A stretch of 64,000 bases of DNA from positions 3,808,001-3,872,000 of the forward strand of contig CBDCNP010000002.1 in NCBI GenBank assembly GCA_965219415.1. The letters are read 5' to 3'. Position 1 is the first letter of the stretch. Each line of letters begins with the position of its first letter. The notes beneath the pieces were generated by a model. That model was not told where the DNA came from. It saw only the letters and a program-made list of their open reading frames with translations, and did no database searches. Positions 53,473 to 64,000 of the stretch are shown here, piece by piece. Made by a program: the position numbers and the translations under genes. The DNA comes from Candidatus Marinacidobacterales bacterium. Lineage in GTDB: Bacteria; Acidobacteriota; Vicinamibacteria; Marinacidobacterales; DATDRI01.

Positions 53473-54315
53473 ATGCCGGCAACTCTCTACGTCGTAGCCA
53501 CGCCCATCGGGAATCTCTCCGATATCTCCACCCGCGCGCTCGAAGTGCTCGAATCGGTCAAGCTGATCGCTTGCGAGGACACGCGCACCACGCGACGACT
53601 GCTCAGTCGGCATGGAATCAGAACCCCTACCATCAGCTACCACGAGCACAACGAACACCAGCGAGCTCCCCAGCTCGTGAAACGGCTTCACACCGGCGAA
53701 GACCTTGCCTTGGTCTCGGACGCGGGAACGCCGGGCGTCTCCGACCCCGGCTACCGCCTGGTAGCCGCGGCTCGAGAGGGCGGGGTTCCGGTGCGAGCCG
53801 TGCCGGGGCCAAGCGCCACCATCGCCGCTCTTTCCGTCTCCGGTCTCCCCACCTCGAGCTTCTGCTTCCGGGGCTTCTTGCCGAGTCGCGGCCGGGCCCG
53901 CGCCCAGGCCATTGAATCCCTGGCGTCGGCAACCCACACGTCGATCCTCTTCGAGTCGGCGCGACGCGCCCCTGCGTTGCTGCAACTGCTCTCACAACGG
54001 CTCGGTCCTCGACCGGCGTTCCTTGCCCGCGAGATGACCAAAGTACACGAAGAGCACCGAAACGGTACTTTGATCGAGCTCGCAGAATGGGCTCGTGAGA
54101 AATCGCTCAGGGGAGAGCTGACTCTTATCATCGGTCCCGCCGAACGGAAGGCGCGTTCTTCCCTCACGCCGGACGAAATCGCGAAACGTTATTCGGAACT
54201 AACCGCGGAAGGGATGAAGCGGCGTGAGGCGGTCAAGATCGTGGCCCGGGAGACCGGGCTTCCCTCTCGCCTGCTCTATCGTCAGTTGCTAGTGCTAGGC
54301 TCCGACTCAGAATGA
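53473..54315 (+). CDS. rsmI: 16S rRNA (cytidine1402-2'-O)-methyltransferase
   Basis: LYVVATPIGNL, ACEDTR, VSDAGTPGVSDPG, REMTKVHEE. Confidence 0.95.
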   Translation: MPATLYVVATPIGNLSDISTRALEVLESVKLIACEDTRTTRRLLSRHGIRTPTISYHEHNEHQRAPQLVKRLHTGEDLALVSDAGTPGVSDPGYRLVAAAREGGVPVRAVPGPSATIAALSVSGLPTSSFCFRGFLPSRGRARAQAIESLASATHTSILFESARRAPALLQLLSQRLGPRPAFLAREMTKVHEEHRNGTLIELAEWAREKSLRGELTLIIGPAERKARSSLTPDEIAKRYSELTAEGMKRREAVKIVARETGLPSRLLYRQLLVLGSDSE

Positions 54316-55382
54316 AGATCCTCGAGGGCATGGCCCAAGGCGGCTTCGAACAGGTCGTCGCGTTGAATGACGCTTCCTGTGGCCTCTCCGGTTTTCTCGT
54401 CATCCACGACACCACGCGCGGACCAGCCGCTGGGGGTATTCGAATCTACTCATATTCGACAGAAGAAGACGCTCTCGCCGACGGTTTCCGACTGGCAAGT
54501 GCCATGACGTTCAAAGGGGCGGCCGCCGGCCTTCCGGTGGGTGGGGGCAAAATCGTACTCCGAGAAAGTCCAGACATGAACCGCGAGGAAGTGTTACGCG
54601 CCGTCGGTCGCTTCATCCAAGGCCAAGGCGGGCGCTTTCTAGCCGGCAGAGACGTGGGAGTACCGGTCCCGCACGGAGCTTGGGTCCGTAGCGAGACCCG
54701 CTTCATGGTCGATGAAAGCGAAAACGGGGTGGGGGATCTCAACCGCTCGACGGCTATTGGTGTCGAGTCTGGCGCACGAGCGGCATTGAATTTTCGGCTC
54801 GGGTCCGATCGCTGGAGAGGTGTACGAGTTGCGATTCAAGGCGCGGGAGGCGTGGGAAGCTGGCTAGCGAAGATCCTGGCCGAACAGGGAGCAGAGCTTT
54901 GGATATCGGATACCCGACCGGAAGCTCTCGAAACCTTGTCGTCGGAAGTTCGTTTTCACGAAGTCGCTCCCGCCGAGATCTTCGGTGCCTCGGAAGACTT
55001 GTTTTGCCCCTGCGCAGTGGGTAGCGTGATCAACGACCAGACGCTCGACAAACTTCGGGCGCGTGTGGTGGCGGGCTCTGCCAATAACGTGCTCGCCGAA
55101 TCGAGACACGGTGAGACACTCCGTGCACGCAACATCACCTATGCCCCCGACTTCTTGGTCAACTCCGGCGCTCTGATCCAAGGCATTCGGTTCTTGCTCA
55201 ACGGAGAGACCGACAGCAGCGAGGCCATCTCGGCGATCGGTGACAAAACGCGTCGACTGCTCGATGAAGCGGCCGTGAAAGGAGAGCCGCCGGAAGCTCT
55301 TTTGTTGAGTCAAACCCTCGAGACGATCGACCGTCGGAGCACTTGGCGGGACTGGAGCTGGCCGGAGGCCCGAGACTCGTGA
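54312..55382 (+). CDS. Glu/Leu/Phe/Val dehydrogenase family protein
   Basis: IHDTTRGPAAGG, GGGK, QGAGGVG, PCAVG, GSANN, PDFLVNSG. Confidence 0.88.
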   Translation: MKILEGMAQGGFEQVVALNDASCGLSGFLVIHDTTRGPAAGGIRIYSYSTEEDALADGFRLASAMTFKGAAAGLPVGGGKIVLRESPDMNREEVLRAVGRFIQGQGGRFLAGRDVGVPVPHGAWVRSETRFMVDESENGVGDLNRSTAIGVESGARAALNFRLGSDRWRGVRVAIQGAGGVGSWLAKILAEQGAELWISDTRPEALETLSSEVRFHEVAPAEIFGASEDLFCPCAVGSVINDQTLDKLRARVVAGSANNVLAESRHGETLRARNITYAPDFLVNSGALIQGIRFLLNGETDSSEAISAIGDKTRRLLDEAAVKGEPPEALLLSQTLETIDRRSTWRDWSWPEARDS

Positions 55383-56682: not shown

Positions 56683-58068
56683 GGGTTTACGCGGATTCGT
56701 GTGGGTAAGTTCTGACGGAAAAACAGTGTAACTCATTGTGTGGAAAAGGTATCGAGTACTTCATCAGGTGCTGAAAAGTGGTCCATTTTTAGGATAGGCT
56801 AACCGAGTGAAAAATTCCCAGTCGATCCGCTCGCTGTTTGCGCTGCCAGGTTTCGTGGTTGGTGCCGGATTGAAGGGTCTATTCGGTGACCGATACGCCC
56901 GCGTCATCCAGCTCAAGAGGCGAAAAAAACAGCTGTGTGCTCTTACTGTGGGCAACGGTGCCGGGGGCGCTATGACAAGCAAGTGTGCCGGGTCCGCGAC
57001 CTGTCGTTGGCTGGCTGGCGGATCTATCTGGAATACGAGCGTCGGCGCGTCAACTGTTCTGGGTGCGGCGGTGTGCATGTAGAACACCTAGACTGGCTGG
57101 CGAACAACTCGCGCTACACCCAGCGTTTTGCGACGCCATGTGGGCAAGCTGTGCCGGGATATGCCGAACAAGGCGGTGGCCGAGATGGAACGTCTGCACC
57201 ACGGTACGGTGAAGGCTCTGGATACACTCTACATGCAAGAGTAGGTCGAACCGGGCGGGGCTACCGGCGCCTCGGGCCATCGGTGTCGATGAGATCTCCA
57301 TCCGCAAGGGACATAACTATCGCGTCATTGTCAGCGACCTGGAGCGGGCGCGTCCCATCTGGGTGGGCGGTGAGGGTCGCAAAGAAACCGACATCGATTT
57401 GTTCTTCAAGGCGCCGGGCGGAAAGAAAAGCGCCCGTATCAAGCTGGCCGCCATGGATATGTGGAAGCCCTTCCGGAACTCGGTGATTCACAACGCGCCT
57501 AATGCGCGGATCATCTTCGACAAGTTTCATATCATGCGTCATCTGTCAAAGGCCCTCGATGAGGTCCGGCGCGGTGAGTACAAACGCCTCAGCGGCAAGG
57601 ACCGGTCGTACATCAAGGGGCAGCGTTACACTTTGCTTTCCCGGCGGGAGAACCTGAGCCTAGACGGTCGCCGCGCACTCAAAAAGTTGCTCCAGGCCAA
57701 CCGGCGCCTGAACACCGCCTATATTTTGAAGGAGGCCTTCGGGCAACTCTGGGATTACCGCACCGAACGCGGCGCTCGCGCCTTTTTCACCCGTTGGAAA
57801 GACAGCCTCAAATGGCAACGCCTGCATCCGTACCAGAAGTTCGCCGGTATGATTGAGTCCCATTGGGATGGTATCGCCTCCTACTGTCATCCGGAGAACA
57901 AAGTCAGTCTCGGCCTAGTTGAAGGGGTCAACAACAAAATCCGTGTTCTGCAACGACGCGCCTACGGCTATCGCGACGAGGAATATCTCAAGCTGAAGAT
58001 CGTGGCGGCTTTCCTTCCGCCATTACCCAGAAATGCAGTTTTCAACCCACACGAATCCGCGTAGACCC
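56683..58068 (+). mobile_element. ISL3-family insertion sequence
   Basis: Inverted repeats GGGTTTACGCGGATTCGTGTGGGT / ACCCACACGAATCCGCGTAGACCC; perfect 8-bp target duplication CGTATTTC (56675-56682, 58069-58076). Confidence 0.95.
56807..58064 (+). pseudogene. ISL3 transposase, disrupted (in-frame TAG at ~57242 and frameshifts)
   Basis: CSYCG / CSGCG zinc finger, IGVDEISIRKG, MDMWKPF, FDKFH, EGVNNKIR spread over several frames. Confidence 0.88.
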
Positions 58069-58089
58069 CGTATTTCTATAGGAGGTTCT

Positions 58090-58656
58090 ATGGCAAAGAA
58101 GGCCACCACTCGCTCCAAGGGGGGGCTGTTCTCACGAAAGAAACTGGCGAAAAAGACCGCCAAGCGCGAAGGCTACGGCAAGTCACTCGAGGCCTTCGAG
58201 AAGGCCTTGAAGGTGCTGCACAAAGGTGACGTCGACCGGGCCCGGGACCAGTTCAAGAACCTAGCCGGCGAGCTCGGTTCTGACCCCGAGCTGGCCGACC
58301 GAGCGCAGGCGTACATTACGATTTGCGACCGCCAGAAGAAGAGCAAGGGCTCGTTCGCGCCCCGTACGTTCGAAGAGGTGGTGACCTACGGTGTTTTTTG
58401 CCACAACCGGGGCGATTATGATCGCGCCATCAAGTACCTCTCTAAAGCCGTCGACATGGAGCCTAAGAGTGACCACGCGCATTACTGCCTCGCCGCCGCC
58501 TATTCGCGACACGGAGACACCCGAGATGCGGCTCGACATCTCAAACAAGCGGTGGTCGGAGATTCATACAACCGCGTCCTAGCCAAAAACGACGAAGATT
58601 TCGCCACGATCAGGGACGAAACAGAAGTAGCCCAGCTGTTGGCAACAACCGAGTAG
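58090..58656 (+). CDS. TPR-repeat protein with basic N-terminus
   Basis: RBS GGAGG; GDYDRAIKYLSKAV, AHYCLAAAYS, AKNDEDF TPR-type motifs. Confidence 0.85.
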   Translation: MAKKATTRSKGGLFSRKKLAKKTAKREGYGKSLEAFEKALKVLHKGDVDRARDQFKNLAGELGSDPELADRAQAYITICDRQKKSKGSFAPRTFEEVVTYGVFCHNRGDYDRAIKYLSKAVDMEPKSDHAHYCLAAAYSRHGDTRDAARHLKQAVVGDSYNRVLAKNDEDFATIRDETEVAQLLATTE

Positions 58657-58679: not shown

Positions 58680-59708
58680 GTGATCTATGGTCTACGGGTC
58701 GTCGCAGTCGGCGGGGGCACTGGGCTCGCCGCTCTGCTGACCGGCCTCAAGAAGTTCGTCGACCCACCTGATTCCCGCTCTCTCTCGAGAGACTCGGTTT
58801 ATTTCGCGGACCTTGCCGCGTTGGTAACGGTCACCGACGATGGCGGCAGCTCGGGGAGGCTGCGCGACGAGCTCCAGATACTCCCGCCTGGAGACGTTCG
58901 GAACTGCTTGCTGGCACTTTCGAGCGACGAGTCGCTGCTGTCTTCCCTGTTTCAGTATCGTTTCAAGGGCGACGGTGGTCTTGGCGGCCACAACTTTGGC
59001 AATCTTTTCCTGGCAGCGCTCACTTCCGTGACCGGCGACTTCTACAGCGCGGTCCGCGCCGCCTCACACGTCCTCGCCATCGAAGGACGTATCTTCCCCT
59101 CGACGACTCAGAATGTCTCATTAGTTGCCGAGCTCGAGGACGGGAGCGAGGTTCGTGGGGAAACACGCATCAGCGCTTCGACCGAGACCATTCGCAGCGT
59201 TCGTCTGGATCCGCCCGATTGTCCGCCGCTCGAAGACTCTCTCGCCGCTATCGAGGAAGCGGATCTCATCCTCATCGGGTCGGGATCGCTCTATACGAGC
59301 CTGATTCCCAATCTTCTCGTCCCGGGCGTCGCCGAGGCGATTTCTCGATCGCAAGCTCTCGTGGTGTATCTGTCGAACATCATGACCCAACCGGGCGAGA
59401 CGACCGGCTACGGCGTGCGCGATCACGTGGAGGCGTTTTCGACACACTGCCCGGGGCTCGAACTCTCTTTCGTTCTCGCCAACGGGACCGCAGTACCGGA
59501 GCCGACGCGCGAACGCTATCGCTCCGAGGGTGCGGAACCAGTCACCTGCTCCCCCGCCGACGAGAACGCGCTGGCCTGCCCGGTACTGGTGGAAGACCTT
59601 CTCGGCGCGGGAGAACCGGTACGCCACGATGGCAGGAAAACCGCGGAAGCACTTCAAACGCTCTTTCCTCAGACTCGCTTCGAGACAACGCGCAGTAAGG
59701 GCGTCTGA
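58680..59708 (+). CDS. yvcK: YvcK/GlmR (CofD-like) UDP-GlcNAc-binding protein
   Basis: GGGTGL, VTDDGGSSG, PPGDVRN, GHNFGNL, GSLYTSLIPNL, NIMTQPGET, RHD. Confidence 0.93.
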   Translation: MIYGLRVVAVGGGTGLAALLTGLKKFVDPPDSRSLSRDSVYFADLAALVTVTDDGGSSGRLRDELQILPPGDVRNCLLALSSDESLLSSLFQYRFKGDGGLGGHNFGNLFLAALTSVTGDFYSAVRAASHVLAIEGRIFPSTTQNVSLVAELEDGSEVRGETRISASTETIRSVRLDPPDCPPLEDSLAAIEEADLILIGSGSLYTSLIPNLLVPGVAEAISRSQALVVYLSNIMTQPGETTGYGVRDHVEAFSTHCPGLELSFVLANGTAVPEPTRERYRSEGAEPVTCSPADENALACPVLVEDLLGAGEPVRHDGRKTAEALQTLFPQTRFETTRSKGV

Positions 59709-59757
59709 CGGCCCGGAAGGCGCAGTTAATAAGAAAGTGCTAGTCTAAGATCAACCA

Positions 59758-60960
59758 ATGCCATCACAACTTACGCTGGTTCTTTGGTCCGGGTCCGGCG
59801 AAGACTCCGCAAAGGACCTTCTCGGTAGGCCGCTCTGGAAACGAACCCTCGAGGCCGCTCAACCGCTCCGACCAAAGCGCACTCTGTTGGTTCTGAATAA
59901 AGGCGGCCGCGCTGCTCTAAACGGGCTCAACGGCATCGAGCCGGTGACCAAGAGACGCTTCTCCGAGGCGCTTGCCGGACTGAGGGGAAAGTTGCTCCTC
60001 CTCCCTGCCGAGATGCCATGTGTGACCCTTCGCAGCTTGAGGCGTCTGGTAGCCGCAGCTCGGTCTGGACCTTCTCGGCTAGTAGTAGAGAACGGGACAC
60101 CGATCGTATGCTGCACCGCGGGGCGCCTTCGAGCCGCAAGCGGCGCATTCCGAAACGGTCTCGATTCCCTAGCCGATCACATACAAGCCTCCGAAGTTCG
60201 ACCCGCGACAACGGAAGAGCTGCTGCTGGTCAAGACCAACGCCGACTGGGCGAAGGCGATGCAGATCATTCGTCGCCGAACCGTAGAGCGCCTCATGGCG
60301 AGCGGGGTCCTCGTCGACGATCCATTGACCGTGCACATCGATCCCGATGTGAAAGTGGGCCGCCGCACCAGAATCCGTGGGTGGGTCGTGATCGAAGGCG
60401 CAAGCCGTATTGGAACCGACTGCGATGTGGGAAGCTTCACCCACGTTGTGGACTCGGTCGTGGGTTCGCGTACCGTGCTCCTCGATCATTGTTTCATCCG
60501 CCAGAGCCGTATCGGTCGCGGCGCCCAAGTCGGGCCCTTCGCTCATCTGCGCCCGGAATCCATCCTCGGCAACAAGACGAAGGTCGGGAACTTCGTGGAA
60601 ATGAAGAAATCGACGCTCGGTGCAGGGAGCAAGGCTCCGCACCTGACCTACCTGGGCGATGCCGAGGTCGGACGCGGCGTCAACGTCGGCGCCGGAACCA
60701 TCACTTGCAACTACGATGGGAGCACCAAACACCTTACGGTCATCGAGGACGGCGCGTTCATCGGAAGTGATGTGCAACTGGTAGCCCCGGTTCGGATCGG
60801 ACGGGGAGCCTATGTCGCGGCCGGCTCTTCGATCGTGGACGATGTTCCGGCCGGTTCGCTGGCGATCGCTCGGGGCCGGCAAGTTGTCAAGCTCGACTAC
60901 GTACGTGATGTGGCTCGCGCCCGAACCAAGAAGTCTAGACCTTCCAAGAGACGATCGTAG
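59758..60960 (+). CDS. glmU: GlmU-like protein: intact left-handed beta-helix glucosamine-1-P acetyltransferase, degenerate uridyltransferase domain
   Basis: [42 protein letters not shown] retained; N-domain lacks LAAGxGTRM and related motifs. Confidence 0.85.
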
Positions 60961-60967
60961 ATCACCT

Positions 60968-62809
60968 ATGTGCGGAATCATCGGTTACGTGGGACCCCAG
61001 CCGACGGTCGAAGTGCTGATCGATGGGCTCAAGCGCCTCGAATACCGAGGCTACGACTCGGCGGGTTTAGCGGTCGTCCGGAACGGAACACTCAACGTCC
61101 TCCGCTCCCAAGGGAACCTCAACAATCTCGAGCGCCAGCTATCGAAAGCCGAGCTCGATGGAAGCTACGGCCTCGGCCATACCCGTTGGGCCACTCACGG
61201 CCGTCCCAACGAAGAGAACGCGCACCCTCACCGAGACTGCACCGACACTTTGGTCGTCGTTCACAACGGCATCGTCGAAAACTATCTCGAGCTCAAAGCC
61301 AAGCTCTCGGAGGAGGGTCATCGTTTCGTCACCGAGACCGATACCGAGGTCATCGCTCACCTGATCGAGAAGCATCTCGATAAGAGCCTGGAGCGGGCAG
61401 TCTTGGACGCTCTCAAGGAGCTCGAAGGCGTTTTCGCATTCGCCTCCCTCTCCGCGAAAGACCCGGACAAACTTGTCGCCGCTCGTAACGGTCCACCCCT
61501 GGTCATTGGGCTGGGAGAAAACGAGGCCTTCATCGCCTCGGACGTTCCGGCCTTCCTCGCTCACAGCCGCGACGTCGTCTTTCTCGACGATGGTGAGGTG
61601 GCAGTCGTTCGTTCCGACGGGGTTGTCCTCATGGATCGTGACGGCGTCGAAAAAGACTGCTCTCCGACGCGCATTACGTGGGACCCGGTCAAGGTGGAGA
61701 AACAAGGATTCAAGCACTTCATGCTCAAGGAGATCTATGAGCAACCGCGCACGGTCCGAGACACTCTACTCGGGCGGTATTCTCTCGATAGCGGGTGCGT
61801 ACACCTCGAGGAAGCCGGGTTGCAAGAGGATCTCATCAAGCGGCTCGAGAAGATCACCATCCTTGCCTGCGGTACGAGCTGGCATGCGGCGCTTGTCGGA
61901 AAATTCCTCATCGAGGCCAACGCACACTTGCCGGTGCAAGTAGACGTGGCTTCGGAGTTCCGCTACCGACACCTCATTCTCGGGAAGGACGATCTGGTCG
62001 TCGGCATCAGCCAATCGGGAGAGACCGCGGACACGCTGGCGGCACTTCGCGCGGCCGGTGACAGTGGCGCCACAACCCTGGCTATCTGTAACGTGACCGG
62101 GAGCATGGCGACCCGTGTCTCAAGCGCGACGCTATACACCCACGCCGGACCCGAGATCGGTGTGGCCTCCACGAAAACGTTTGCCGCGCAGCTGGTGGCG
62201 CTGCACCTGCTGGCCCTTTACCTCGCGCAGGGTCGAGGCGGCCTTTCTTCCGAACAAGTGCGAGAGCGACTCAACGAGCTTGCGAGGGTCGCCCATTTTA
62301 TAGAGCAAGTGCTCACCCTCTCTCCGGAGATCGAGTCCATCGCCAGAGATTTCTATCTGGCGCCCAATTTTCTCTATTTGGGGCGCGGCCTCCTCTACCC
62401 CATTGCGCTCGAGGGGGCTCTCAAGCTCAAAGAGCTCTCCTATATTCATGCCGAGGGATACCCGGCGGGCGAAATGAAACACGGACCGATCGCGCTCATC
62501 GATGAACGCATGCCGGTGGTAGCGCTCGCTCCGTCCGACTCGCTTTTCGAGAAAATGGCCAACAACATCCAGGAAGCCAAGGCGCGCGGCGCCCGCCTCA
62601 TCGTTTTTGGAACCGAGGGCGAGTCCCGCCTCAAGGAGATCCTCGATGACGAGCACGATCGGCTCGTCGAGCTTCCGCCGCATCCCGCAGCCGTTTCCCC
62701 ACTGCTCATGGTCGTGCCGCTCCAACTGCTCGCTTATCACATCGCCGTCGCTCGCGGGTGCGACGTCGATCAGCCCCGCAACCTGGCGAAGTCGGTGACT
62801 GTTGAGTAG
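60968..62809 (+). CDS. glmS: Glutamine--fructose-6-phosphate aminotransferase
   Basis: MCGIIG start, LEYRGYDSAG, GHTRWATHG, SQSGETADT, PRNLAKSVTVE. Confidence 0.97.
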   Translation: MCGIIGYVGPQPTVEVLIDGLKRLEYRGYDSAGLAVVRNGTLNVLRSQGNLNNLERQLSKAELDGSYGLGHTRWATHGRPNEENAHPHRDCTDTLVVVHNGIVENYLELKAKLSEEGHRFVTETDTEVIAHLIEKHLDKSLERAVLDALKELEGVFAFASLSAKDPDKLVAARNGPPLVIGLGENEAFIASDVPAFLAHSRDVVFLDDGEVAVVRSDGVVLMDRDGVEKDCSPTRITWDPVKVEKQGFKHFMLKEIYEQPRTVRDTLLGRYSLDSGCVHLEEAGLQEDLIKRLEKITILACGTSWHAALVGKFLIEANAHLPVQVDVASEFRYRHLILGKDDLVVGISQSGETADTLAALRAAGDSGATTLAICNVTGSMATRVSSATLYTHAGPEIGVASTKTFAAQLVALHLLALYLAQGRGGLSSEQVRERLNELARVAHFIEQVLTLSPEIESIARDFYLAPNFLYLGRGLLYPIALEGALKLKELSYIHAEGYPAGEMKHGPIALIDERMPVVALAPSDSLFEKMANNIQEAKARGARLIVFGTEGESRLKEILDDEHDRLVELPPHPAAVSPLLMVVPLQLLAYHIAVARGCDVDQPRNLAKSVTVE

Positions 62810-64000
62810 TTCGGACCCCAAGGCTCCCGACATACTCTCCGAGCTCAATCCCGGCCAGACGGCTGCGGTCACGGCACCGGACGGACCCGTGCTAGTGCTC
62901 GCCGGCGCGGGTTCGGGAAAGACTCGAGCCATCGCGCACCGCGTGGCCTTTCTCATAGGAGAAAGGAACGCCCCGCCTTGGACGATCTTGGCGCTCACGT
63001 TCACCAACAGGGCGGCCGGCGAGATGCGCTCGCGCGTCGAAGCCTTGGTCGGAGAAGCGGCACCCGATCTGTGGATCTCGACGTTCCACTCTCTCGGCCT
63101 TCGCCTCCTCCGGCGCTTCGGCACCGATATCGGTTTACCTTCGGAGTTCGTCGTTCACGACGAACAAGATCGCCGAACTCTGCTCCGGCGAGTTCTCATG
63201 GAGATCGGCGTCACCGAGCGCGAGTATCCGCTTGCGCGAGTCGCGTCCGCCGTATCCGCCAGGAAAAACGCCGCCTTCGGAAGTGAGGTGTCTCCCCGCT
63301 GGTGGAGAGAACGCGATCGACTCGTCCTCGACCGCGCTCTCGAGCGCTACCAAAAATCCCTTGAAGATGCAGGCGGTGTCGACTTCGACGACCTTCTCAT
63401 CCGCTCCGTAGAACTGCTGGAGTGCTCCGAAAAAACACGCGCCTTCGCCGAGCGACGCTTCCGGCACCTCTTGGTGGATGAGTACCAGGACACCAACCGG
63501 ATTCAGTACCGTTTGATGCGGCTCCTCGCCCCCCACCAAAACGTCTTCGTGGTGGGTGACGAGGATCAATCCATCTACAACTTTCGGGGGGCGGATCTTC
63601 GAAACATTCTCGACTTCGAGAAAGACTTCCCGGGCGCGCAGCTGGTTAAGCTCGAGGACAACTACCGTTCCACCAGTGCCATTCTTGAGGCGGCGAGCAG
63701 TCTCATCGCCCACAACGAAGAACGCAAAGGGAAGAAACTTGTCGCTAAGCGCGGCGAAGGAGAGGCGCCTCGAGTCTATGCGGCAGAGACGGATTGGACC
63801 GAGTGTCACTTCGTCGCGGATCAGATCGAGTCGCTCCGCCAAGAGTCGACCACTAGCCGCGTCGCGGTTCTCTTCCGCACCCACGCACAGACACGTCTCT
63901 TCGAAGAGGAGTTCGTACGCCGAGGCATCCCTCACCTCCTGGTGGGCGGGCAGCGGTTCTACGAACGGCGTGAGGTCAAAGACGCCCTCTGCTACCTGCG
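62802..64000 (+). CDS. pcrA: UvrD/PcrA superfamily 1 DNA helicase (runs off the window end; absent from the supplied ORF track)
   Basis: Manual translation: LNPGQTAAV, VLAGAGSGKT, LTFTNRAA, STFHS, VDEYQDTN, VGDEDQSIYNFRGA, NYRST. Confidence 0.93.
   Translation, partial: MSSSDPKAPDILSELNPGQTAAVTAPDGPVLVLAGAGSGKTRAIAHRVAFLIGERNAPPWTILALTFTNRAAGEMRSRVEALVGEAAPDLWISTFHSLGLRLLRRFGTDIGLPSEFVVHDEQDRRTLLRRVLMEIGVTEREYPLARVASAVSARKNAAFGSEVSPRWWRERDRLVLDRALERYQKSLEDAGGVDFDDLLIRSVELLECSEKTRAFAERRFRHLLVDEYQDTNRIQYRLMRLLAPHQNVFVVGDEDQSIYNFRGADLRNILDFEKDFPGAQLVKLEDNYRSTSAILEAASSLIAHNEERKGKKLVAKRGEGEAPRVYAAETDWTECHFVADQIESLRQESTTSRVAVLFRTHAQTRLFEEEFVRRGIPHLLVGGQRFYERREVKDALCYL

Follow-up and report, generated by a model that had tools for sequence, protein, structure and literature searches.

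In bacteria, GlmU is regarded as universal, essential and bifunctional, and it is considered a target for antibiotics. According to the excerpted text of a 2026 preprint, its uridyltransferase half is bypassed in staphylococci and in some other bacteria by means of an enzyme of eukaryote-like type, whereby S. aureus relies on the UAP1-like NagU and many NagU-bearing bacteria lack GlmU wholly or partly, acetyltransferase-only forms included (Fong et al., 2026; 10.64898/2026.06.23.733835). GlmR (YvcK) of Listeria, B. subtilis and S. aureus makes UDP-N-acetylglucosamine (UDP-GlcNAc) in vitro, with D40, D41 and N198 needed, as the excerpted part of PMC10128056 has it, and in an excerpt of PMC13046274 the D38A D39A mutant fails to complement in B. 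subtilis. For the archaeal enzyme ST0452 of S. tokodaii, excerpted passages of PMC4909775 name His308 as essential and Tyr311 and Asn331 as important for acetyl transfer. Among the papers listed by a literature search on the GlmU uridyltransferase domain in Acidobacteria, none was relevant. The locus described here lies in a stretch of 64,000 nucleotides (the window) from Candidatus Marinacidobacterales bacterium, phylum Acidobacteriota (GCA_965219415.1, contig CBDCNP010000002.1, positions 3,808,001 to 3,872,000 of the forward strand). It consists of yvcK, the gene of a 400-amino-acid (aa) GlmU-like protein named here GlmU* (window positions 59758-60960) and glmS. The source assembly comprises 3 contigs with 8.05 Mb in total; its completeness is 96% and its contamination 8.45%. 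As judged from the motifs and their distribution, bifunctional GlmU has probably been replaced in this organism by two proteins, GlmU* as the acetyltransferase and an ST0452-like nucleotidyltransferase with a dead acetyltransferase domain, encoded elsewhere in the genome, while YvcK would be the ancestral GlmR of the operon. Activities of all these enzymes, as well as the substrate of the ST0452-like protein, are given below as predicted ones.

In its overall layout, GlmU* resembles the bacterial GlmU of E. coli and S. pneumoniae (TIGR01173), with which it shares the fold, the linker helix, the beta-helix with HLxYxGD and NYDG and the glmS partner. It differs in an N-domain shorter by ca. 75 residues, in having no uridyltransferase signature motifs and in a score below the family cut-off (295.3 bits against 366.85), the match being limited to positions 205-449 of 452; in other words, GlmU* was not recovered as a full-length, over-cut-off member of the bifunctional family. 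A sub-threshold match to Pfam NTP_transf_3 (E 1.4e-3, residues 21-110) was all that could be obtained for the N-part, and sequence matches to solved GlmU structures covered residues 138-386 alone, without any match in the N-domain.

Relatives were taken from 41 genomes of the order, representing three families (f1, f2 and f3) and 18 genera and including the unpublished G007. Alignment A1 joins the GlmU* of the window with 27 orthologues and with 9 further GlmUs that are either canonical or degenerate in part; it omits locus L124, which has an internal stop, and L117, L123, L128, L132-L134, L143, L146, L149 and L151, which are near-duplicates or call for caution. In A1, the LAAGxGTR..PK motif is missing from the N-domain of GlmU* with a 6-residue gap at the site, the QxxQLGTGHA block is deleted, GDxPL reads PAEMPCV, EYYLTD and GVN are gone, and a deletion of about 45 residues spanning GYGR...EKD...EINxG corresponds to the sugar-binding lobe. 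Three residues of the H. influenzae GlmU, K25, Q76 and D105, are called absolutely required in the excerpted PMC10128056; the positions of the first two fall in deleted or unconserved stretches of GlmU*, and that of D105 is occupied by Glu here and by Gly in f3. Across 17 f1/f2 sequences, M1, G23, W27 and L94 are the only invariant residues of the N-domain, and the f3 sequences have diverged further. The C-half, in comparison, retains HLTYLGDA and NYDG, the HLxYxGD and NYDG columns being invariant in all 37 sequences, and is 42% identical to the C-domain of E. coli GlmU in structures 3twd and 4aa7. The C-termini differ between the families: an acidic tail RFEGAD(E/D)(V/I) is present in 11 of 11 aligned f3 sequences, and a basic tail in f1/f2 and in canonical GlmUs.

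The remnant N-domain is still recognizable as a GlmU domain. In a profile comparison with canonical N-domains (hhalign), residues 19-104 aligned to canonical positions 23-117 with a probability of 94.7% and an E value of 6e-8. The AlphaFold model of GlmU* has a pLDDT of 92.1 and a pTM of 0.87, with N-domain values mostly of 81-95 and one 10-residue block at 65. In Foldseek, the whole model was superposed on GlmU chains with a TMq of 0.81-0.84 over about 445 columns, and the predicted structure would thus keep the two-domain fold together with the helical arm. As a lead only, the nearest named ESM Atlas clusters to residues 1-150 were of the NTP_transferase/MobA-like type (score 0.90). The ratio of nonsynonymous to synonymous substitution rates (dN/dS) in six close pairs was 0.15-0.32 for the N-domain and 0.07-0.13 for the C-half, so that the remnant is maintained under a roughly twofold weaker constraint. 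The N-domain is therefore best described as a trimmed Rossmann-like core without catalytic loops or sugar-binding lobe, and GlmU* very probably acts as an acetyltransferase carrying a vestigial N-domain. Most of this anatomy had been anticipated by the preliminary description of the window, namely the shortening of the N-domain, the missing uridyltransferase motifs, fold-like remnants that have now turned out to be true homology, and the intact acetyltransferase motifs. It had put the shortened part at 170-180 residues before the linker; in the model, about 150 residues precede a linker helix at 161-181.

The degenerate state is not a peculiarity of one assembly. Of the 41 order genomes, 40 carry the 400-aa form, the exception being G033 (91% complete), and the GlmU family model gave no over-cut-off hit in any of the 41, with 40 of them matching in the C-half alone. 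Profile searches thus found no canonical GlmU in the own genome or in any of the order genomes, and no close relative with an intact N-domain, and to this extent the split pathway proposed in the preliminary description has stood up. In comparison, canonical GlmU (over the TIGR01173 cut-off) was present in 156 of 201 genomes sampled across the phylum and missing from 45. The degeneration of GlmU* is order-wide and selected rather than a local decay. The own genome further encodes GlmM (498.6 bits), MurA (586.4 bits) and LpxA/LpxD-like matches; the earlier part of the pathway is in place, and with GlmM and MurA present the cell requires UDP-GlcNAc and hence an enzyme that uridylylates N-acetylglucosamine 1-phosphate (GlcNAc-1-P).

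Other irregular forms of GlmU were seen in the phylum sample. Several families (f20, f48) had two separate GlmU matches, maybe split genes, and two other architectures were encountered within the same class: the acetyltransferase of G238 stands alone with 237 aa, and that of G099 is embedded in a very long open frame. In the Aminicenantes loci L094 and L050, GlmU N-domains are full-length or shortened, with eroded motifs such as IPAGGEGAGFGS and LPALYPLL, which suggests that the uridyltransferase half decayed independently in another class.

A genome-wide search for other nucleotidyltransferases, as recommended in the preliminary description, recovered six NTP_transferase genes, of which five were scanned: a long RmlA, GalU, a ManC-like, a MurU/ManC-like and a 387-aa archaeal-type protein; the sixth, at C3:4716435, is short. 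The archaeal-type protein, the ST0452-like paralogue mentioned above, aligns with positions 2-384 of 393 of the archaeal GlmU family TIGR03992. It has been named bifunctional GlmU by the automatic annotation of JGI and sugar phosphate nucleotidyltransferase by that of NCBI. Its best solved relative is ST0452 (5z09/2ggo), matched with 160-164 bits over positions 3-369 of 373, and the two proteins have in common the two-domain architecture, the nucleotidyltransferase motifs and a full-length alignment; the Asn in the LNGDD of the paralogue is also that of the ST0452 Y97N variant crystallised in 5z09/5z0a. Outside the order, the nearest relatives come from archaea, Hydrogenedentota and Patescibacteria, at 30-37% identity. 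A profile built from the paralogue and five f3 orthologues (A2; presence at E<=1e-60) found it in 39 of the 41 order genomes and in all three families. In the phylum sample, A2 detected only G000 (589 bits) and G051 (295 bits), all others remaining at or below 128 bits; G051 has no GlmU match at E<=1e-40. The paralogue thus occurs in 2 of the 45 genomes without canonical GlmU versus 0 of the 156 with it.

The motif states of the paralogue mirror those of GlmU*. Residues G10, R14, K24, Q78, G83, T84, G104, D105, E149 and K150 of the nucleotidyltransferase domain are invariant throughout the paralogue family and the archaeal outgroups. Unlike in ST0452, the equivalents of His308, Tyr311 and Asn331 are replaced: the His and Tyr of HLSYVGDS and the Asn of GAGTxxAN, kept in 6 of 6 outgroups, are lost in 5 of 5 family members and in L191, with D/R/R/A/A at the position of His308 and R/L/V/T/R at that of Tyr311 in the five members. 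This pattern suggests a reciprocal division of labour, in which the paralogue would have kept the nucleotidyltransferase motifs and lost the acetyltransferase residues. The principle is the one described for partial GlmU with NagU, where the acetyltransferase part is kept and another uridyltransferase is used (Fong et al., 2026); unlike those systems, whose taxa in the excerpted text are NagU carriers, the genome studied here has no NagU/UDPGP gene, keeps a vestige of the N-domain and has an archaeal ST0452-type protein as the candidate partner. A search for the NagU/UAP1 type (PF01704, UDPGP) gave no candidate in the own genome, and the same search found 6 of the 201 Acidobacteriota (359-423 bits, four of them without canonical GlmU), which served as a positive control.

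Two doubts about the paralogue gene itself were followed up. The stops that had flagged the f2 paralogues as pseudogenes proved to be the natural ends of intact genes of 381-385 aa. Contamination or chimaerism as its source is unlikely, single-contig relatives such as G001 holding GlmU* and the paralogue on one chromosome. The alternative bacterial GlmU (TIGR03991) was rejected for the own genome, in which weak beta-helix matches of at most 36 bits were all that was found.

The window YvcK is a full member of its family and, like the GlmR/YvcK of Firmicutes (B. subtilis, L. monocytogenes), has the DD and the N and probably the conserved Tyr and Arg. It matches Bacillus halodurans YvcK (2hzb/2o2z) with 268 bits but has 15 extra residues behind the first beta-alpha unit. 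All 18 orthologues compared share D53, D54, N233, Y280 and R315. The stretches TVTDDGGSSG and NIMTQPGET can be aligned with the B. halodurans protein and correspond by motif to D40, D41 and N198 of Listeria. The Tyr and Arg for UDP-GlcNAc binding in B. subtilis YvcK are Y265 and R301; Y280 and R315 of the window protein may be their counterparts, judged from their location in the alignment with the B. halodurans protein. Unlike the yvcJ-glmR-whiA arrangement of Firmicutes, the yvcK of the window stands in a TPR-yvcK-glmU-glmS operon of a type common in Acidobacteriota with normal GlmU. In the window, yvcK is flanked by the TPR gene and glmU* and not by yvcJ/rapZ and whiA; this holds for the window only, since no search for rapZ or whiA was made elsewhere in the genome.

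The distribution of YvcK is summarized as follows. The f1/f2 locus reads RsmI-(dehydrogenase)-TPR-YvcK-GlmU*-GlmS-PcrA, with YvcK intact or contig-truncated in 21 of 23 loci, whereas the f3 locus, RsmI-GlmU*-(SIS-only GlmS-like)-PcrA, has neither TPR nor YvcK in 15 of 15. At the level of genomes, f3 has a degenerate GlmU in 15 of 16 and YvcK in none of the 16. The two irregular f1/f2 loci both belong to f2: in G018 (L126), yvcK is broken into two fragments (80.5 bits, positions 182-308 only), and in G040 (L137) it is missing between the TPR gene and glmU*; GlmU* and the ST0452-like paralogue are intact in both genomes. Of the 201 genomes of the phylum sample, 89 have YvcK, 85 of the 156 with canonical GlmU versus 4 of the 45 without it (G000, G151, G175 and G238). 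The TPR-yvcK-glmU(-glmS) order also occurs with canonical glmU, as in L047, L088 and L111 (Acidobacteriaceae, Pyrinomonadaceae), and in at least 33 of the 201 genomes an over-cut-off glmU is preceded on its own strand by yvcK at a distance of no more than about 530 bp, a count made by hand comparison of listed coordinates that includes the unpublished G089 and G192. Since the order stands beside canonical glmU, it predates the decay of the N-domain.

The gene after GlmU* in f3 (L138, L140-L152) also deviates: it encodes only the SIS/isomerase half of a GlmS-like protein, about 340 aa long and matching TIGR01135 from 254 to 604 with 158 bits. Full-length GlmS is absent genome-wide in 4 of 5 f3 genomes checked, and G029 has one at another locus. 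With a SIS-only GlmS and without YvcK and TPR, both operon enzymes appear halved in f3.

These data bear on the alternatives to the two-protein reading. The preliminary description had proposed YvcK/GlmR as the main GlcNAc-1-P uridyltransferase, which may have displaced the N-domain of GlmU and whose place in the operon would reflect the partnership. The in vitro activity of GlmR together with the invariant DD and N columns of the window protein, the position of yvcK 49 bp upstream of GlmU* and the existence of two genomes (G004 and G005) with GlmU* and YvcK in which the ST0452-like paralogue is lacking all speak for it. Yet the same adjacency is common beside canonical glmU, f3 keeps GlmU* after losing YvcK altogether, G018 and G040 keep it with fragments of YvcK or none, and in the phylum YvcK accompanies canonical GlmU far more often than its absence. 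The association expected between degenerate GlmU and adjacent yvcK holds in f1/f2 and fails in f3, and a better candidate is encoded elsewhere in the genome, so that this explanation is not supported by the comparison and is quite unlikely as the main or general answer. YvcK would putatively be an ordinary GlmR, that is, a regulator of GlmS and of the UDP-GlcNAc flux, and possibly an accessory uridyltransferase. Another candidate is one of the remaining nucleotidyltransferases (the long RmlA, the ManC-like, the beta-helix-tailed MurU/ManC-like protein or GalU), which might provide UDP-GlcNAc by relaxed specificity, with the paralogue serving a different sugar. ST0452-type and RmlA-type enzymes have a broad substrate range. 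Moreover, the own genome holds five further NTP_transferase genes, 5z09 bears the PDB title 'dual sugar-1-phosphate nucleotidylyltransferase', and G004 and G005 manage without the paralogue. Nevertheless, the candidates exceed or come close to the cut-offs of the families to which they belong (long RmlA 471.7, GalU 377.9 and ManC-like 317 bits, the last with an adjoining phosphomannomutase-like gene), and such genes, although not counted family by family, also occur with canonical GlmU (A2 matches of at most 128 bits, same class), so their presence does not track the loss of GlmU; we consider a takeover of this kind unlikely. That the shortened N-domain of GlmU* is itself still a uridyltransferase with an unconventional active site is hardly credible. 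It would agree with the purifying selection, with the retained core fold and with a Glu at the metal-binding Asp position of GDxPL in most f1/f2 members, but the Gly-x-Gly-Thr-Arg that resembles a P-loop and the Lys, as well as the QxxxGTG block for uracil binding and the entire sugar-binding lobe, have been deleted or are not conserved, in f1/f2 with four invariant residues left and in f3 with still greater divergence.

The assignment of the uridyltransferase step to the ST0452-like paralogue has its own difficulties. The compared genomes are related to one another and the counts are not independent events. Among the 45 genomes without canonical GlmU, about 39 have no ST0452-like paralogue, no NagU-like gene and, with three exceptions, no YvcK; apart from these exceptions they have none of the three candidate uridyltransferases, and other routes must exist. 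The paralogue remains under the cut-off of TIGR03992 (275.1 against 292.1 bits), the Asn of the ST0452 motif INAGIY is Val or Ile in its family, and its sugar specificity is not readable from the sequence, the activity being predicted. Its neighbourhood offers no functional hint, with FeoB in the own genome and MetK in f3. G004 (73% complete) and G005 (96% complete) have best A2 scores of 72-73 bits, so the paralogue is not the sole solution; in these two genomes the step must fall to another nucleotidyltransferase or to YvcK, in which the reported catalytic residues are retained.

Weighing these points, we regard the replacement of bifunctional GlmU by GlmU* and the ST0452-like paralogue as the best explanation. 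The TPR-yvcK-glmU*-glmS cluster would represent the ancestral acidobacterial UDP-GlcNAc operon, in which the uridyltransferase domain encoded by the glmU of Marinacidobacterales would have been stripped of its catalytic apparatus. GlmU* would then act only as the N-acetyltransferase of glucosamine 1-phosphate, and its N-domain of about 150 residues would persist as a selected non-catalytic remnant, probably structural (trimer or arm packing) and possibly regulatory; a putative scaffold role of this domain and of the TPR protein had been suggested in the preliminary description. The conversion of GlcNAc-1-P and UTP to UDP-GlcNAc would most likely be carried out by the 387-aa protein of the archaeal GlmU/ST0452 type, and two enzymes of the bifunctional type would each be left with one activity. 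A tentative but plausible extension is that the ancestor of the order had both a bacterial GlmU and an ST0452-like enzyme, the latter probably by transfer, which then degenerated reciprocally, whereby the dead N-domain was selected as a pseudoenzyme module, for instance a docking or sensing surface for GlmR or the new uridyltransferase. Such a module would fit the faster decay of the N-domain in the family that lost YvcK.

The coordinates of the features are collected in Table 1. The open reading frames and coordinates of the preliminary description were confirmed, GlmU* being a single uninterrupted frame. From 58033 to the end of the window, the ORF list gives a tight cluster on the plus strand, with gaps of 23 bp (TPR/yvcK), 49 bp (yvcK/glmU*) and 4 bp (glmU*/glmS) and an 8-bp overlap between glmS and the helicase gene. 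The TPR protein likely starts near 58090, because its relatives align from about residue 17. It is encoded directly 5' of yvcK or glmU in 23 of 23 f1/f2 loci and in 18 of 80 loci from other taxa. GlmS follows directly 3' of GlmU* in 23 of 23 f1/f2 loci; in the window, its listed frame opens at 60812 and the MCGIIGY start lies at 60965. The helicase gene comes after glmS, or after the SIS-only gene, in 34 of 38 loci of relatives. Directly 5' of the TPR gene and overlapping its annotated start, there is an ISL3-family transposase in two frames, probably an insertion sequence broken by a frameshift, which lies where the operon begins. A hydrophobic frame without Pfam match lies between the transposase and a dehydrogenase-family gene.

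Table 1. Features of the glmU* locus and of the ST0452-like paralogue (window positions unless stated otherwise).
Feature	Position	Strand	Basis or remark
Glu/Leu/Phe/Val dehydrogenase-family gene	54312-55382		
Hydrophobic ORF, 375 aa	55343-56470		no Pfam match
ISL3-family transposase, two frames	56935-58064		Zn_ribbon_ISL3 56935-57483; DDE_Tnp_ISL3 57363-58061 (204 bits)
TPR protein	58033-58656	+	Pfam TPR_2/TPR_1; NCBIfam TPR_END_plus 56.8 bits; first gene of cluster
YvcK/GlmR, CofD-like	58680-59708	+	TIGR01826 349.2 bits (cut-off 196); Pfam CofD E 9.5e-101
GlmU* residues 1-150, vestigial uridyltransferase domain	59758-60207	+	hhalign homology, motif losses
GlmU* residues 151-400, linker helix, acetyltransferase left-handed beta-helix and basic tail	60208-60960	+	TIGR01173 positions 205-449; Pfam Hexapep
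GlmS, glutamine--fructose-6-phosphate aminotransferase, full length	60965-62809	+	TIGR01135 823 bits; NF001484 831 bits
UvrD/PcrA-type helicase	62802-63998, runs off window	+	Pfam UvrD-helicase E 4.7e-79
ST0452-like paralogue, 387 aa	own genome C1:1483621-1484781, outside window		TIGR03992 (Arch_glmU) 275.1 bits

Overall, the case is a variant of a recently recognised kind of GlmU bypass, not a new kind. The locus would represent a second and different bypass, fixed across an acidobacterial order and made of a selected pseudo-uridyltransferase domain and an archaeal-type partner without the opposite activity. If the reciprocal degeneration is true, an essential and supposedly indivisible bacterial enzyme would have been split again over two genes of different ancestry. 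With 45 of 201 genomes lacking an over-cut-off GlmU and several architectures among them, the phylum Acidobacteriota is a natural laboratory for the dismantling of an essential two-step enzyme. The two genomes G004 and G005, in which a dead GlmU N-domain is combined with YvcK and no other obvious candidate, would be well suited to deciding whether GlmR/YvcK suffices physiologically as a uridyltransferase, a point under dispute. For annotation, the 'GlmU' calls in these genomes should not be taken as bifunctional.

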